From positions 6,510 to 70,509 of the forward strand of contig CAKPHY010000001.1 in NCBI GenBank assembly GCA_934162285.1: a stretch of DNA of 64,000 nucleotides, given 5' to 3'. Position 1 is the first letter of the stretch; the number at the start of each line of letters is the position of its first letter. Under the pieces are notes generated by a model. That model did not search any database, was not told where the DNA came from, and was given only the letters and a program-made list of their open reading frames with translations. Below are positions 9,600 to 25,422 of the stretch, piece by piece. Made by a program: the position numbers and the translations under genes. The DNA is from an uncultured Bacilli bacterium (GTDB lineage Bacteria > Bacillota_I > Bacilli_A > RF39 > UBA660).

Positions 9600-11699
9600 T
9601 TATATAGTTAATTCATTTTGATCGACTTTAATTTCTAAAGTTGTACCTTCTTTTAATTCTCCAGATAACAACTTTTTAGCAATTAATGTTTCTAACTTTT
9701 CAGTTACATATCGTTTAATTGGTCTAGCTCCGTAAGCTTCATTATAAGAATGATCAATAATGAAATTAGCAGCTTCATCAGTTAATTTTAATGTTATTCT
9801 TTTATCTTTTAAACGAGCTTCTAAATCTTTAATTATTTTAGTTAATATTTCTTTAATAACATCTTTATTTAAAGCATTAAAAATAACTATTTCATCTATT
9901 CTATTTAAAAATTCTGGTTTAAAATTAGCTCGCAATTCATTCATAACTTTTTCACGATCATTATTTTCTAAAATGTGTTCGCTTCCTAAATTTGAAGTCA
10001 TAATAATGATAGTGTTTTTAAAATCAACTGTACGACCTTGAGAATCAGTTAAACGTCCATCGTCTAATATTTGAAGTAATATATTAAATACATCTTTATG
10101 AGCTTTTTCTATTTCATCAAATAGAATGATACTATATGGATTTCTTCTAACAGCTTCGGTTAATTGACCACCTTCATCGTAACCTACATATCCGGGAGGC
10201 GCTCCAACTAATCTAGATACTGAAAAGCTTTCCATATATTCTGACATATCAATACGAATCATATGACGTTCATCATCAAATAGTTCATATGCTAATGTTT
10301 TAGCAACTTCAGTTTTACCAACACCAGTTGGTCCTAAGAAAATGAATGAACCAATTGGTCTATTAGGATCTTTAATGCCAGAACGAGCACGAATGATTGC
10401 TTCGCACACTAATTTTATAGCTTCATCTTGACCTTTAACGCGTTTAATCATATTAGTTTCTAAATTCATTAATTTTTCTTTTTCTGTTCCTACTAATTTA
10501 CTTATAGGAATATTAGTCCATCTAGAAATTATTTCAGCAATTGATTCATCAGTAACAGTATCACTTAAAATTTGATATTTATCACTTTTTTTCAACTCTT
10601 CAATTTCTTTTTCTAACGTTGGAATTACACCATGACGCAACTTAGCAGCTGCTTCTAGGTCGTAATTATTTTCAGCTTGTTCTAAATTGAATTTTGCTTT
10701 TTCTAATTCTTCTTTTTTCTTACTGATTGTTTCGTTGATATTTTTTTCTTTTTCCCACTTACCACGTAGTTCAGATTCATCTTTCTTCAAGGTTTCTATT
10801 TGTTCTTTAATTTCAACTACACGTTTTTTAGAATCTTCATCATTATCTTTTTTAATAGCTTGAAGTTCTATTTGTAATTGCATTATTTTTCTAGTTAAGC
10901 GATCTAATTCTACTGGTGATGAATCCATTTGCACTTTGATAGTAGCACAAGCTTCATCAACTAAATCGATTGCTTTATCTGGCAAGAAACGATCAGTTAT
11001 ATAACGATCAGATAAGGTAGCAGCCGCAATTAAGGCACTGTCTTTTATATTAACACCATGATATACTTCAAAACGTTCTTTTAACCCACGCAAAATAGTA
11101 ATAGTATCTAAAACATTAGGTTCAGTAACTAATACTTTTTGAAAACGACGTTCTAAAGCTCCATCTTTTTCTATGTATTTACGATATTCATTTAAAGTAG
11201 TAGCTCCAATACAATGAATTTCACCACGAGCAAGTAATGGTTTTAACATATTACCAGCATCCATAGCACCTTCCATAGCTCCAGCTCCTACTAACATATG
11301 AATTTCATCAATGAAAAGAATGATTTTGCCTTCACTTTTAGTTATTTCTTTTAAAACAGCTTTTAATCGTTCTTCAAATTCACCACGATATTTAGCACCA
11401 GCAATTAAAGCTCCCATATCTAATTCCCAAATAGTTTTATCTTTTAAGGAATTAGGTACATCGCCTTTTATTATTCTTAAAGCAAGTCCTTCTACAATAG
11501 CAGTTTTACCAACACCTGGTTCACCTATTAATACGGGATTGTTTTTAGTTTTTCTTGATAAAATACGGGTAATACTACGAATTTCTTCATCTCGACCAAT
11601 GACGGGATCTATTTTTCCACTCTTGGCTGCATCTACAATATTACGGCCATATTTTTCTAAAACATTTTCAAGATTTTCTTGATATGGATTTTGATTCAT
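9600..11699 (-). CDS. clpB: ClpB chaperone lacking the N-terminal domain
   Basis: Two AAA modules ([15 protein letters not shown] and [10 protein letters not shown]), a ClpB-type coiled-coil M-domain between them and a C-terminal domain. Begins at the NBD1 linker; no in-frame N-domain upstream. Confidence 0.9.
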
Positions 11700-11720
11700 A
11701 ATTATCCCCTCCTAAAAAAA

Positions 11721-11748
11721 TTATGTTGCTTTTTTTACAACATAATAA
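11721..11748 (-). terminator. hairpin plus U-tract in the clpB 5' leader, possibly a terminator for the upstream MBL gene or an attenuator
   Basis: TTATGTTG-taaaaaaag-CAACATAA followed by TTTTTTT, then AGGAGGGG and the ATG. Confidence 0.5.
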
Positions 11749-11775
11749 TTATACCACACTATTAGCACTTGTCAA
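11748..11775 (-). promoter_or_regulatory. sigma-A promoter of clpB (-35 TTGACA, 16-nt spacer, extended -10 TGgTATAAT)
   Basis: Minus-strand sequence cTATTGACAagtgctaatagtgTGgTATAATtatt. Confidence 0.7.
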
Positions 11776-11788
11776 TAGAGAGTGCTAA
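11762..11788 (-). promoter_or_regulatory. CIRCE element (HrcA operator) overlapping the clpB promoter
   Basis: TTAGCACTT-GTCAATAGA-GAGTGCTAA against the consensus TTAGCACTC-N9-GAGTGCTAA (17 of 18); the -35 lies within the spacer and right arm. Confidence 0.8.
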
Positions 11789-12303
11789 TTTAAATAAATA
11801 TTATTCATTTTTTCAGTTTTAAGGCTTGTCATTTCACCATGACCAGGATAAACAATTATATCTTCAGGATATTCTTTAATTTTATTAATTGACTCGATCA
11901 TCAAATGTGGATTACTATCTAGCATATCAGTTCTCCCGATTGTTCCTTTAAATAGAAAGTCACCTGTAAACAAAATTTTTTCCTTTGGAAAATAGATTGA
12001 TATTCCTGTATTGCTATGACCTTTAGTAGATATTATTTCAAAATTAAATGGATCAATGTTTATTATTCCAATATTATGACAATCATAAACAGGAATTTGA
12101 TAATTTTTTTTAATTTCTTCTAAAGCACCAATGTGATCAAAGTGGTAATGCGTAATTATGATAGCTACTGGTATTAAATTTCCTATAGTGTTAATTATTT
12201 TACTAGCTTCTGCTCCCGGATCAATTATTAAACATTTATTAGTAGAAATGACGAGATAACAATTAGTTTGTAATTTGCCTACTATTATTCTTTTTACTTG
12301 CAT
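11785..12303 (-). CDS. MBL-fold metallo-hydrolase
   Basis: HxHxDH motif ITHYHFDHIG and downstream His/Asp ligands. Confidence 0.75.
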   Translation of the reverse strand: MQVKRIIVGKLQTNCYLVISTNKCLIIDPGAEASKIINTIGNLIPVAIIITHYHFDHIGALEEIKKNYQIPVYDCHNIGIINIDPFNFEIISTKGHSNTGISIYFPKEKILFTGDFLFKGTIGRTDMLDSNPHLMIESINKIKEYPEDIIVYPGHGEMTSLKTEKMNNIYLN

Positions 12304-12797
12304 AATTCTAAATTCAATACTTCTTCCAAATCAGAGATAACAGGATATTTAGATATTTTTTTAGTTTTTGAAAATTTAATACCTATACCACCATGTTCTT
12401 CCCAATCTTCTAAATTACCAGTAAAGTCGTCAATTAAAATTGAATCTTTAGCACAAACCATATCAGTTTTAGCTACTTCTTTGGGAACAACAATAATCGT
12501 TACATCTTTTAAAAATCTTCTTATAAATTTAATTTTAGCAATACTTTCTTTTTGACTAACAACATGGGTTAAAATAGAAACATCAAAAACATTTTCAGTT
12601 ATAATTTTAGCGATTTTATGCATGCTATCATTTATTAATGGTGTTTTATTTAAAAGATCTTCCCAGTCAAGATTTTGATAAAAAAGCATGACACTATCTA
12701 AATTTTTTCGATCAATTTTTTGTTTATTCATCATTTCATAAGTTACTTCAATGGTATCAGAAATAACACCATCAAAATCAATGTATAAATTTTTCAT
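12294..12797 (-). CDS. HAD-superfamily 5'(3')-deoxyribonucleotidase-like hydrolase
   Basis: N-terminal DxDGV motif (LYIDFDGVISDT), as in HAD phosphatases of the NT5C/YorS type. Confidence 0.5.
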   Translation of the reverse strand: MKNLYIDFDGVISDTIEVTYEMMNKQKIDRKNLDSVMLFYQNLDWEDLLNKTPLINDSMHKIAKIITENVFDVSILTHVVSQKESIAKIKFIRRFLKDVTIIVVPKEVAKTDMVCAKDSILIDDFTGNLEDWEEHGGIGIKFSKTKKISKYPVISDLEEVLNLELCK

Positions 12798-12805
12798 GTT
12801 ATCAC

Positions 12806-12841
12806 CTATTTTGATTTTAGCATTTTTGTTACAAAAAAGGA
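12806..12841 (-). terminator. rho-independent terminator of the infC-rpmI-rplT operon
   Basis: GGAAGTTT-atttt-AAAACTTCC hairpin followed on the minus strand by TTTTTT. Confidence 0.7.
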
Positions 12842-12844
12842 AGT

Positions 12845-13357
12845 TTATTTTAAAACTTCCAATAATTCTGCTTTCTTCATAGCAGTAAATCCTTCGATTC
12901 CTTTTGCTTTTGCTAATTCACGTAATTCAGCAACTGTCATTTTAGAAATATCAGTTGTTTTTTTAGTTGCTTTTTCTTTTTTAGCAACAGCAGCTGTTTT
13001 TTCTTCTAAAGCTTTCTTTGAAATTTCAACTAATGAAGTGAATGCTTTTGGATTATCAATTGCTAATTCACTTAACATCTTACGGTTGAATACAACACCT
13101 GCTTTATTTAAACCATTGATGAATTTAGAATAACTAATTTCATTTTGACGGCAAGCAGCATTGATTCTTGTAATCCATAATTTACGGAAATCTCTTTTCT
13201 TTTGCTTACGATCACGGTATGCATATTTTCCAGAATGCATAACTTGTTCGGCTGCTGACTTATATAGTCTATGTTTACTTCCAAAGTATCCTTTGGCTTG
13301 ATCCATTATTTTTTTGCGACGTGCACGATGAATAGTGCCACCTTTAACTCTTGTCAT
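12845..13357 (-). CDS. rplT: 50S ribosomal protein L20 with a ~45-aa C-terminal Rho_N/SAP-like extension
   Basis: [16 protein letters not shown]...[15 protein letters not shown] matches L20; the extra tail [32 protein letters not shown] resembles the Rho N-terminal helix motif. Confidence 0.9.
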
Positions 13358-14105: not shown

Positions 14106-14149
14106 AAAATGACACCTCCAAATAAAAAGTGAATGCGAGAATGCATCCA

Positions 14150-14395
14150 CTTAAAAACCACTAAATGATATTAGGCATGTTTCTTAACCCAAAGACTTAA
14201 TCAATCGGGTGAGAAGTGGATACTTCTTCTTTCCTTTTTAAATACACCAGTATTATAAACAATATTATGTTTTTTGTCAACTAAATATGTTAATTTTTAT
14301 TTTTTTTCAAGTTTTAACTTGAATATATTTATATTATAACAAAATTTTTTTAAATATCAACTAATTAAGTTGTATAATTTAAGTAGGAGGTAAAT
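14150..14395 (-). promoter_or_regulatory. infC-rpmI-rplT leader region (candidate L20-leader autoregulatory RNA)
   Basis: 245-bp untranslated leader containing the imperfect hairpin GAGAAGT-ggat-ACTTCTTC; Firmicutes regulate this operon through an L20-binding leader structure. Confidence 0.3.
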
Positions 14396-24168: not shown

Positions 24169-25422
24169 TTATCTTCTCCCTTTTGTATAATTTCTGCTTA
24201 ATATTAAACTTTCTAATTGTTTGTAAGTTTCTAAGGCAACACCGACAACTATTAATAATCCTGTACCACCTAAGGCAATACTACTGCTTAAACCAGTTAT
24301 CCAAACAAATATTGTTGGTAATGCTGCTAATAAAGCAAGTAATGCAGCTCCGACAAAAGTTATATGATTTATTACATTTTTAATATAGGTAATTGTTGTT
24401 TCACCTGGACGCACACCTGGAATATAGCCACCATTTTTTTGTAAATTTTCAGCCATATCTTTTGGTTTTAATTGTGCATAAGTGTAAAAGTAAGAAAAAC
24501 CAAATATTAATAAAATATAAAGTATAAATCCTGTTGGTGAAGTTGTTGATAACCACTTTTCAGTGAATGTTGTTATCTTTTCAACTTTGAAAAATTGAGC
24601 AATAAATGCTGGCATTTGTAATAATGCTGATGCAAATATTACGGGAATAACTCCAGCAGAATTTAAACGGAATGGAATATAACTTTGTTTTCCTCCAACA
24701 GCCGTTGATTTATTGGCATATTGGATTGGTACTCTTCTTTCAGCATTTTCTTCAAAAACTACTGCAAGAACAATGAAAATATATAACAAGATATAAACAA
24801 CAAATTTTATAATACCTGCTACTGTTGCACCTTCCATAAATATTTGGTAGGCTTGAACAAAGGTATTTGGTAAAGTCATTAAAATACCTGCCATGATAAT
24901 CATTGAAATACCATTGCCGATTCCTTTTTGAGTCATTTGATCACCTAGCCATAATAGCAAAGATGTACCTGCTGTCATAACTAAAGCGAACTTTAAGTAT
25001 TGTTCAAATGAACCTCCTTGAATAATTGCAAATGAGAACATATATCCTTGGATAAATGCCATTGCAATTCCCAAGTAACGGGTAATTTTATTTAATTTTA
25101 CTTGACCTGTATGTCCTTCTTTGGCTAAGTCAGCTAAATATGGAATAATATCCATTTGTAATAACTGAATTATGAAAGAAGCAGTAATGTATGGAGATAC
25201 TCCTAAAGCAAAAATTGAAAATTGCTCTAAAGCGCCACCACCCATTACATTTAATAGTTGAAAATATTTTAATGTACTTAATCCTAATTGCGCTTTATTT
25301 ATTCCTGGAATAACTATTGCTGTTCCTAATTTAAAAATAAATAAGGCAAATAGAGTAAAATATATTTTCTTTCTTATATCTTTATTTTTGGGATTAAATA
25401 TTTGCTTTAATGTTGCAAACAT
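24169..25422 (-). CDS. secY: preprotein translocase subunit SecY
   Basis: 417 aa, 10 TM helices, position between rplO and adk. Confidence 0.95.
   Translation of the reverse strand: MFATLKQIFNPKNKDIRKKIYFTLFALFIFKLGTAIVIPGINKAQLGLSTLKYFQLLNVMGGGALEQFSIFALGVSPYITASFIIQLLQMDIIPYLADLAKEGHTGQVKLNKITRYLGIAMAFIQGYMFSFAIIQGGSFEQYLKFALVMTAGTSLLLWLGDQMTQKGIGNGISMIIMAGILMTLPNTFVQAYQIFMEGATVAGIIKFVVYILLYIFIVLAVVFEENAERRVPIQYANKSTAVGGKQSYIPFRLNSAGVIPVIFASALLQMPAFIAQFFKVEKITTFTEKWLSTTSPTGFILYILLIFGFSYFYTYAQLKPKDMAENLQKNGGYIPGVRPGETTITYIKNVINHITFVGAALLALLAALPTIFVWITGLSSSIALGGTGLLIVVGVALETYKQLESLILSRNYTKGRR

Follow-up and report, generated by a model that had tools for sequence, protein, structure and literature searches.

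The clpB gene of an uncultured Bacilli bacterium is preceded by a promoter in which a putative operator of the repressor HrcA is embedded, and a terminator-like hairpin lies between this promoter and the gene. This locus raises two questions, namely which repressor would control clpB and on which transcript the hairpin would act. Both were addressed by an analysis of a stretch of 64,000 nt (hereafter, the window), which has a G+C content of about 28%, and by comparison with related loci, which are designated by L and a number. The combined explanation that we consider likely consists of an operator for HrcA fused to the clpB promoter and a displaced terminator of the upstream transcription unit.

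The clpB gene and the layout of its promoter

The following elements of the gene and its control region can be distinguished:

9600..11699, (-) strand: clpB, 699 aa, without the N-terminal domain (Pfam, TIGR03346 and structure-protein alignments)
11708..11713, (-) strand: Shine-Dalgarno sequence AGGAGG, 8 nt before the ATG
11741, (-) strand: G, predicted transcription start, 7 nt past the -10, inferred from standard sigma-A geometry
11748..11756, (-) strand: extended -10 TGgTATAAT (TG at 11756-11755, TATAAT at 11753-11748)
11770..11775, (-) strand: -35 TTGACA, made up of 5 nt of the CIRCE spacer and base 1 of the right arm
11762..11788, (-) strand: CIRCE operator TTAGCACTC-TCTATTGAC-AAGTGCTAA, 17/18 consensus positions
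11788-11780, (-) strand: left arm of CIRCE, TTAGCACTC
11779-11771, (-) strand: spacer of CIRCE, TCTATTGAC (N9)
11770-11762, (-) strand: right arm of CIRCE, AAGTGCTAA

Judging by its profile and structure matches, the 699-aa protein belongs to the ClpB family, as a variant without the N-domain. The Pfam domains AAA, AAA_lid_9, AAA_2 and ClpB_D2-small were identified, and the architecture of the disaggregase is present, with its two AAA+ modules, its long coiled-coil middle domain and its D2-small domain. The TIGR03346 profile was aligned over positions 146-851 of 853; its positions 1-145 were unmatched, and Clp_N had no Pfam match in the protein. The TIGR03346 score (1139.6) is lower than the equivalog cut-off (1232.1) because the first 145 profile positions are missing. 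The protein can be aligned with T. thermophilus ClpB (residues 143-839) and E. coli ClpB (residues 155-852), and its residues 4-696 give a continuous alignment to the ClpB structures 1qvr and 4d2q. No in-frame extension upstream of the clpB ATG is possible according to the reading of the ORF, and all ClpB relatives with 78-100% identity are 697-721 aa in length. Since the relatives down to 78% identity are all short and no upstream extension exists, the N-domain-less form is, on this comparison, a trait fixed across the clade and not an annotation artefact, in agreement with the description of the gene in the earlier note. The ClpB proteins of mycoplasmas, about 715 aa in length, are also N-domain-less. 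ClpB forms whose start corresponds to about residue 145-150 of full-length ClpB are represented by E. coli ClpB80 and by the short isoform of M. tuberculosis ClpB (PMC6168691); however, these are produced from an internal start in a full-length gene, whereas the gene described here encodes the short form only.

The CIRCE consensus is TTAGCACTC-N9-GAGTGCTAA, a 9-N9-9 inverted repeat for which up to two mismatches were allowed. The only mismatch of the clpB site is a substitution of A for G at base 1 of the right arm (G->A), and the same base completes the TTGACA of the -35. This is the sole match at up to three mismatches in the 64-kb window, where shuffled sequences predict 0.01 matches. Directly 3' of the right arm, the (-) strand reads tagtgTGgTATAAT, which includes both the TG and the TATAAT; the extended -10 follows at a distance of 8 nt from the operator, and the -35 and -10 are separated by 16 nt. 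In the promoter scan, the site scored 12/12 plus TG, as expected for an extended -10 promoter of sigma-A. Perfect TTGACA-N16-18-TATAAT sites occur twice in the 64 kb, the clpB promoter included, versus 0.16 expected. The earlier note had placed an operator with 17 of 18 consensus positions here, with the -35 in its spacer and right arm and TGgTATAAT 16 nt downstream, and all of these elements were recovered at exactly these places. CIRCE overlaps the -35, and thus it is located within the promoter of a chaperone gene. As it lies upstream of the clpB start site, the operator is absent from the clpB mRNA. The letters between the Shine-Dalgarno sequence and the ATG (11699) are ggataatt.

Predicted control of clpB by HrcA

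When comparing orthologous clpB promoters, it can be noted that CIRCE is kept at 17-18/18 positions in L087, L088 and L089, while the intergenic flanks and the leader have changed, as has even the upstream gene. L087 (86% ClpB identity) has TTAGCACTCACTATTGACAAGTGCTAA with TGaTATAAT. L088 (80% ClpB identity) has TTAGCACTCGTTATTGACGAGTGCTAA, which contains a perfect 18/18 CIRCE, a -35 TTGACG and TGaTATACT downstream. L089 (78% ClpB identity) has TTAGCACTCCCTCTTGACAAGTGCTAA with 17/18 positions and TATAAT, and a further copy of the module is located before htpG in this locus. Conservation of CIRCE in orthologous promoters with diverged flanks argues for a functional HrcA operator. Repression through promoter occlusion, which had been suggested for this promoter earlier, can be regarded as well supported by these sequence comparisons.

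A scan of metagenome contigs for the fused arrangement TTAGCACTC-N4-TTGACAAGTGCTAA revealed at least 120 loci, and about 110 distinct loci were taken into the module alignment. The family identities of the downstream genes were checked on cluster representatives. Among the matches listed, the first gene downstream of the module is the N-domain-less clpB (55 loci), hsp20 (38) or htpG (8); other downstream genes are hrcA (3), a dnaJ-like gene, groES and full-length clpB (one each). Thus, among the matches listed, the module precedes chaperone genes almost exclusively. The three listed loci in which it precedes hrcA have a higher G+C content and belong to another lineage. The complete genes of the listed N-domain-less clpB loci mostly encode 698-719 aa, and the G+C content of these loci is mostly 0.21-0.33. 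In nearly all module loci listed, the -10 is found at 16-17 nt, often with TG. That the palindrome is retained at 17-18/18 before chaperone genes in so many independent contexts strongly indicates recognition by a trans-acting factor, namely HrcA. We consider it highly probable that the clpB promoter, of the sigma-A type, carries a genuine CIRCE operator for HrcA fused to it.

By analogy with B. subtilis and the Mollicutes, an HrcA dimer on CIRCE would cover the -35 and exclude RNA polymerase. When GroEL is titrated by unfolded proteins, HrcA would become inactive and clpB would be transcribed; the product of the derepressed gene would be a naturally N-domain-less disaggregase. The same fused module would also drive hsp20 and htpG in the lineage. 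The 9-N9-9 operator and the logic of HrcA-GroEL titration are attributed to Mogk et al. 1997 (cited in PMC7737663).

The genes hrcA, dnaK and groEL were not found in the window or in any fetched low-GC locus (tblastn with two HrcA queries, together with motif scans), and none of 20 ORFs of the window scanned with Pfam matches their products. In the window and the 210 loci searched, hrcA was detected only in the unrelated loci L003, L090, L098 and L118. This result would suit a constitutive promoter with a CIRCE-like palindrome that is not used by HrcA, being a relic, the site of another factor or a 3' hairpin of the upstream mRNA. Likewise, the CIRCE promoters of M. gallisepticum act much like other heat-induced promoters (PMC4245973), and decaying CIRCE sites have been described in S. 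melliferum (PMC5138195). Nevertheless, we regard such an explanation as very improbable, given that the match of 17-18/18 is retained in relatives with differing intergenic sequence, that the module occurs almost exclusively at chaperone genes among at least 120 loci and that CIRCE, being upstream of the clpB start, is outside the clpB mRNA. The single mismatch is also no obstacle, as functional CIRCEs reportedly tolerate up to two (PMC5138195).

Control by the other repressor of Firmicute heat-shock genes, CtsR, was also considered. The premise of the earlier note that clpB is normally controlled by CtsR in Firmicutes is reasonable; for example, clpB of L. plantarum (lp_1903) is under CtsR control (PMC3842655). 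The operator of such Bacilli genes is the CtsR heptad direct repeat, whereas no CtsR box (RGTCAAANANRGTCAAA, direct repeat) was found near clpB here. Only two weak CtsR-type matches, at 25344 and 37094, are present in the window, at chance level, and a CtsR operator at the clpB promoter was rejected. With the CtsR-controlled Bacilli the locus would share the heat induction of clpB through a dedicated repressor (PMC3842655), predicted here to be HrcA.

The leader hairpin and the upstream transcription unit

The region between the upstream genes and the Shine-Dalgarno sequence contains the following elements:

12294..12797, (-) strand: ORF of 167 aa (orf167), no family assigned, presumed to open the upstream unit
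11785..12303, (-) strand: gene of an MBL-fold hydrolase, 172 aa, co-directional with clpB and upstream of it
11720..11747, (-) strand: AT-rich hairpin ATTATGTTG(T)-A7-(G)CAACATAAT, stem of 9-10 bp, A7 loop
11714..11719, (-) strand: U-tract after the hairpin, T7 counting 11720, adjoining the Shine-Dalgarno sequence

The end of orf167 and the start of the MBL gene overlap by 10 nt, and the MBL gene stops at a TAG (11787-11785) that is at the same time the TAG in the left arm of CIRCE, TTAGCACTC. The leader letters 11746-11720 of the (-) strand are t-ATTATGTTGt-aaaaaaa-gCAACATAAT. The hairpin formed by them has a dG of -8.7 kcal/mol (z = -4.0), and together with the U-tract it has the form of an intrinsic terminator located 39 nt past the MBL stop codon. 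With 9-10 bp, this dG and T7, the stem is terminator-like, yet it has only two G-C pairs; this explains why the generic terminator scan passes over it without a call. The terminator-like element that the earlier note had seen directly before the Shine-Dalgarno sequence is real, but the action on clpB transcripts implied there is not favoured by the comparisons, which point to a terminator of the upstream unit.

As the MBL stop codon is inside CIRCE, there is no space for a terminator ahead of the clpB promoter. We give a little better than an even chance to the reading that the hairpin and the U-tract are the terminator of the orf167-MBL unit, displaced into the clpB 5'UTR. In RNA reading through from upstream, the full 9-10-bp stem would form beside the U-tract and transcription would stop. 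The predicted clpB start site (11741) falls within the 5' arm of the hairpin, so RNA from the clpB promoter would begin about 5 nt into this arm. In RNA starting at G11741, the hairpin falls from -8.7 to -3.9 kcal/mol and is reduced to a 5-bp stem, 5 nt away from the U-tract, which transcription would probably read past.

Two classes of clpB leaders are found in the clade. Most leaders are short (18-31 nt) and unstructured; the others are long (43-59 nt) and have a stem-loop starting 1-5 nt after the -10. L087 has the same hairpin arms as the window with a loop of 4 nt instead of 9, and the TAA in the right arm of its CIRCE is the stop codon of the upstream ORF. L089/L160, L123, L130 and L155 have other stem sequences at the same leader position. 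The stems thus vary by lineage (ATTATGTTG; GTGAGTGG; GTGAATGA; AAGTATGC), whereas their position is retained. Between lineages, the sequences of the leader stems cannot be aligned.

The position of the upstream stop codon was compared with the presence of the hairpin in de-duplicated module loci. Loci in which the stop of a co-directional upstream ORF falls within -8..+27 of the CIRCE start were defined as having no room for a terminator. Among the matches listed, a hairpin with a T-run 1-5 nt after the -10 was found in 8/19 no-room loci versus 2/90 others (Fisher p=7e-6), although the positives represent only about 4-5 independent stems, so that independence is overstated by this test. In loci with room, a terminator-like hairpin is located between the stop codon and CIRCE in 40 of the 66 cases among the matches listed. 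As the hairpin with its T-run tracks an upstream stop inside or against CIRCE, it is best read as the displaced terminator of the upstream unit. On the other side, 11 of the 19 no-room loci among the matches listed are without a leader terminator; for example, the L088 leader contains a hairpin and no T-run, and L117 has neither. In L123 and L130, the stem starts 5 nt after the -10, and promoter-derived RNA would retain most of it. The U-tract is also variable among contigs of the same species, being T7, T8 (L084) or T3 (L210). The shortening to T3 in L210, a MAG of the same species, suggests that the tract is dispensable, and this counts against a terminator.

Some of these observations would also be compatible with a function in the clpB mRNA. 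5'-terminal stem-loops protect several Firmicute mRNAs from 5'-end-dependent decay by RNase J/Y. The leader hairpin could be such a stem-loop stabilising the clpB mRNA, with the U-run serving as an AU-rich leader or translational enhancer, a role that would be compatible with termination. The hairpins begin at or beside the expected 5' end, 1-5 nt past the -10, a hairpin without a T-run occupies the same position in L088, L105/L158, L188, L198 and L210, and the length of the U-tract varies within the species, all of which would fit a stabiliser. However, the predicted start is 5 nt inside the stem in the window and in L087, with only -3.9 kcal/mol remaining; most clade clpB leaders (18-31 nt) lack any hairpin, and the concentration of hairpin and T-run where the upstream stop abuts CIRCE would be left unexplained. 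We consider stabilisation a serious but unlikely alternative. Still less probable, in our opinion, is an attenuator or a heat-labile terminator or thermometer acting on clpB transcripts and adding heat control at the RNA level to that by HrcA, although this was the reading implied by the earlier note. The terminator-like form directly ahead of the Shine-Dalgarno sequence and the weak AT-rich stem, which would melt easily, are in keeping with it, and in L089/L160 the promoter-derived RNA could contain the whole stem. Against this, the Shine-Dalgarno sequence is unpaired in both the MFE and the centroid of the predicted leader fold, as is the AUG; the truncated leader has an alternative fold that is no better than shuffles (z = -1.0), and no Rfam family was found anywhere in the window at the gathering threshold. 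Moreover, the element is missing from most orthologous clpB leaders and tracks the position of the upstream stop, not clpB. An RNA thermometer of the fourU or ROSE type, with a fold sequestering the Shine-Dalgarno sequence, was rejected because this sequence is unpaired, the alternative fold is at shuffle level and Rfam gives no match.

The repeat ATTATGTTG-N9-CAACATAAT can also be regarded at the DNA level. Its two arms, perfectly inverted over 9 bp, stand 9 bp apart, which is the 9-N9-9 geometry of CIRCE, and the repeat overlaps +1, as would an operator of a second repressor over the start site. However, there is a single copy in the window, where 0.26 chance matches are expected at three mismatches, the arms are spaced by 4 nt and not 9 in L087, and in other relatives the arms are entirely different. 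The differing stem sequences and the short loop of L087 indicate an RNA stem and argue against a protein-binding repeat. A second DNA operator is hardly credible and was rejected, since neither spacing nor sequence is conserved.

Returning to the displaced terminator, a more general proposal may be made, tentatively and with somewhat less than even confidence, that compact low-GC Firmicute genomes recurrently nest a terminator in the promoter-proximal leader of the next gene. In such an arrangement, the stop codon of the upstream gene would be the TAG of CIRCE, the terminator would lie past the -10 of the next promoter, and the start site would fall in its 5' arm. The same DNA would then end read-through RNA and let promoter-initiated RNA pass. 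A literature search for promoter-overlapping terminators found nothing relevant.

The host, known CIRCE systems and significance

The earlier note took HrcA control of clpB as characteristic of lineages related to Mollicutes and as a hint at the affinity of the host. The window encodes Spo0A (TIGR02875, 262 bits), PolC, PolA and a SipW-type signal peptidase, as well as peptidoglycan enzymes (an amidase, two D-Ala-D-Ala carboxypeptidases, an alanine racemase and a MurJ-like flippase). The presence of Spo0A, SipW and the peptidoglycan enzymes indicates a walled Firmicute and not a mollicute. More than 100 gut-metagenome contigs encode exactly this ClpB; an essentially identical protein (~100%) carries the name 'MAG: Erysipelotrichaceae bacterium' (GCA_022767685.1), a relative at 80% is named 'Mollicutes bacterium' (MAG), and the best match from a GTDB representative, among the matches listed, is 'uncultured Bacilli bacterium' (72%). 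From its gene content and protein matches, the host is a walled Firmicute of a sporulating lineage in the neighbourhood of Erysipelotrichia and Mollicutes. The taxonomic hint was thus roughly right as regards the nearest named proteins, but the host is walled and Spo0A-positive.

The character on which the hint was based is not specific. In a comparison of 80 ClpB loci from GTDB species representatives among the matches listed, mostly with 57-63% identity and from many phyla, many Clostridia, among them Lachnospiraceae, Oscillospiraceae, Christensenellaceae and 'Clostridium sp.', were found to have a CIRCE with up to two mismatches no more than about 100 nt ahead of a full-length clpB. As CIRCE-clpB fusions, including the TTGACA, are found in many Clostridia, this character does not discriminate lineages related to Mollicutes. 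In the clostridial full-length clpB loci compared (L012, L013, L017, L026, L031, L032, L042, L043, L050, L052, L055 and L071), CIRCE is 41-100 nt from the clpB start, and many of them likewise have an embedded TTGACA and one mismatch at base 1 of the right arm. Their register, however, is 1 nt further right, TTAGCACTC-N5-TTGA|CAGTGCTAA, the mismatch is G->C versus G->A here, and their ClpB has an N-domain of about 145-150 aa. The Izemoplasmatales MAG locus L029 combines an N-domain-less ClpB with the clostridial CIRCE/-35 register.

In the CIRCE systems of the dnaK and groESL operons of B. subtilis and Clostridium, the operator follows the -10 or start site, precedes the gene and is transcribed. 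They share with the clpB promoter the 9-N9-9 operator and the proposed HrcA-GroEL titration; unlike in these operons, here CIRCE lies over the -35 and outside the mRNA, and the gene targeted is clpB instead of dnaK or groE. The dnaK and groESL operators of C. botulinum are described in PMC3806222. In the Mollicutes, HrcA/CIRCE controls clpB in M. pneumoniae (MPN531; PMC7737663), M. gallisepticum (PMC4245973) and S. melliferum (PMC5138195). The resemblance to these systems lies in the position of CIRCE just upstream of the clpB -10 and in the HrcA regulon, not CtsR (PMC7737663, PMC4245973, PMC5138195). The differences are that the host here is a walled, Spo0A-encoding Firmicute with code 11, that the -35 fused to the operator has the full consensus, a hexamer absent from most mollicute promoters, and that the module is also found before hsp20 and htpG in the lineage.

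Apparently, the CIRCE-clpB promoter is a real and conserved HrcA/CIRCE class I heat-shock switch of an essentially known kind, and these findings do not overturn the current understanding. The mollicute-like arrangement would now be recognised in a walled relative, with hsp20 and htpG added in the lineage. As the operator/promoter fusion is widespread in Clostridia, CIRCE-clpB cannot serve to mark Mollicutes in taxonomy. The fused module TTAGCACTC-N4-TTGACAAGTGCTAA-N5-TGnTATAAT may represent a compact natural heat-inducible promoter part. If the terminator is indeed located inside the leader, this would neatly illustrate how a gene can be insulated from its neighbours where genes are densely packed, the nested terminator shielding an HrcA-repressed gene from upstream transcription without a cost in intergenic space. 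For the organism itself, an abundant uncultured gut lineage resembling Erysipelotrichaceae, the analysis would place clpB in the HrcA (class I) regulon and not in that of CtsR, and hsp20 and htpG of its relatives share the CIRCE/promoter module.

The fused module ahead of clpB and other genes

A clostridial variant of the fused module, in which the HrcA operator CIRCE incorporates the -35 hexamer, was found about 40-100 nt upstream of clpB in six comparison loci (L012, L032, L043, L050, L052, and L055). Compared with the module in the window, its -35 is displaced by one base (TTAGCACTC-N5-TTGA|CAGTGCTAA), and the single CIRCE mismatch consequently becomes G→C instead of G→A.

The ClpB ORF of Planococcus maritimus (L014, 2989-5100) apparently begins without the N-domain. 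A full-length ClpB would be expected in this genus, and the short ORF may be due to a frameshift or a wrongly picked start.

The metagenome scan placed the fused module ahead of hsp20 in at least 38 loci and, among the matches listed, ahead of htpG in at least eight (both sets within L091-L209). In L089, a relative with 78% ClpB identity, a second copy lies ahead of htpG:

L089 20143-20169: copy of the fused CIRCE/-35 module

The hsp20 loci with higher G+C content have a long leader in common, starting with TATAACATAGTCAGAACAAAGGAA; an extra half-CIRCE is present within some low-GC hsp20 leaders. In three hrcA loci from a lineage of 37-40% G+C, the fused module is present with a second CIRCE placed in tandem behind it (L090 4109-4135, L098 3699-3725, and L118 441-467). 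The HrcA proteins of L090 and L098 are unusually short, about 250-265 aa, and the L118 ORF is cut.

Leader elements of clpB and infC

The length of the U-tract behind the clpB leader hairpin (window 11714-11720) differs among contigs of the same species (L081-L086 and L210): T7 is found in most of them and T8 in L084. The same-species NCBI MAG GCA_022767685.1 (L210) has T3, together with a G→A change in the hairpin loop.

Besides the clpB promoter, only one perfect TTGACA-N17-TATAAT site occurs within the window, and a hairpin lies between this site and infC:

14252-14280, minus strand: perfect TTGACA-N17-TATAAT upstream of infC
14128-14151, minus strand: hairpin of -10 to -11 kcal/mol, then a T-run

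The latter has the appearance of a leader attenuator of L20/IF3 type belonging to the infC-rpmI-rplT operon; this element has no Rfam match. At the gathering threshold, Rfam gave zero matches across window positions 1-64000. No tRNAs, ribosomal-protein leaders, or riboswitches are present. These 64 kb take in a large ribosomal-protein cluster.

End of the ribosomal operon and the array with a SipW-type peptidase

12839-12860, minus strand: hairpin GGAAGTTTTAAAATAAACTTCC with T6, covering the rplT stop codon
12845-13357, minus strand: ribosomal protein L20 (170 aa), whose C-terminal tail is Rho_N/SAP-like

Given this hairpin across the rplT stop codon, the ribosomal operon seems to possess its own terminator. 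Downstream of rplT, the two-gene orf167-MBL unit has only ~36 nt available for its own promoter. The L20 protein corresponds to the NCBIfam "L20/unknown domain fusion protein", and the same tail is present in L20 of the relatives L087 and L088.

3160-7808, minus strand: array of six paralogous secreted proteins, 165-206 aa
5948-6514, minus strand: SipW-type signal peptidase, inside the array

The six paralogues have a hydrophobic N-terminal helix followed by a common GTYAYYQ motif, and no family match was found for them in Pfam or NCBIfam. In its arrangement, the array with the SipW-type peptidase is a TasA/camelysin-like cluster.
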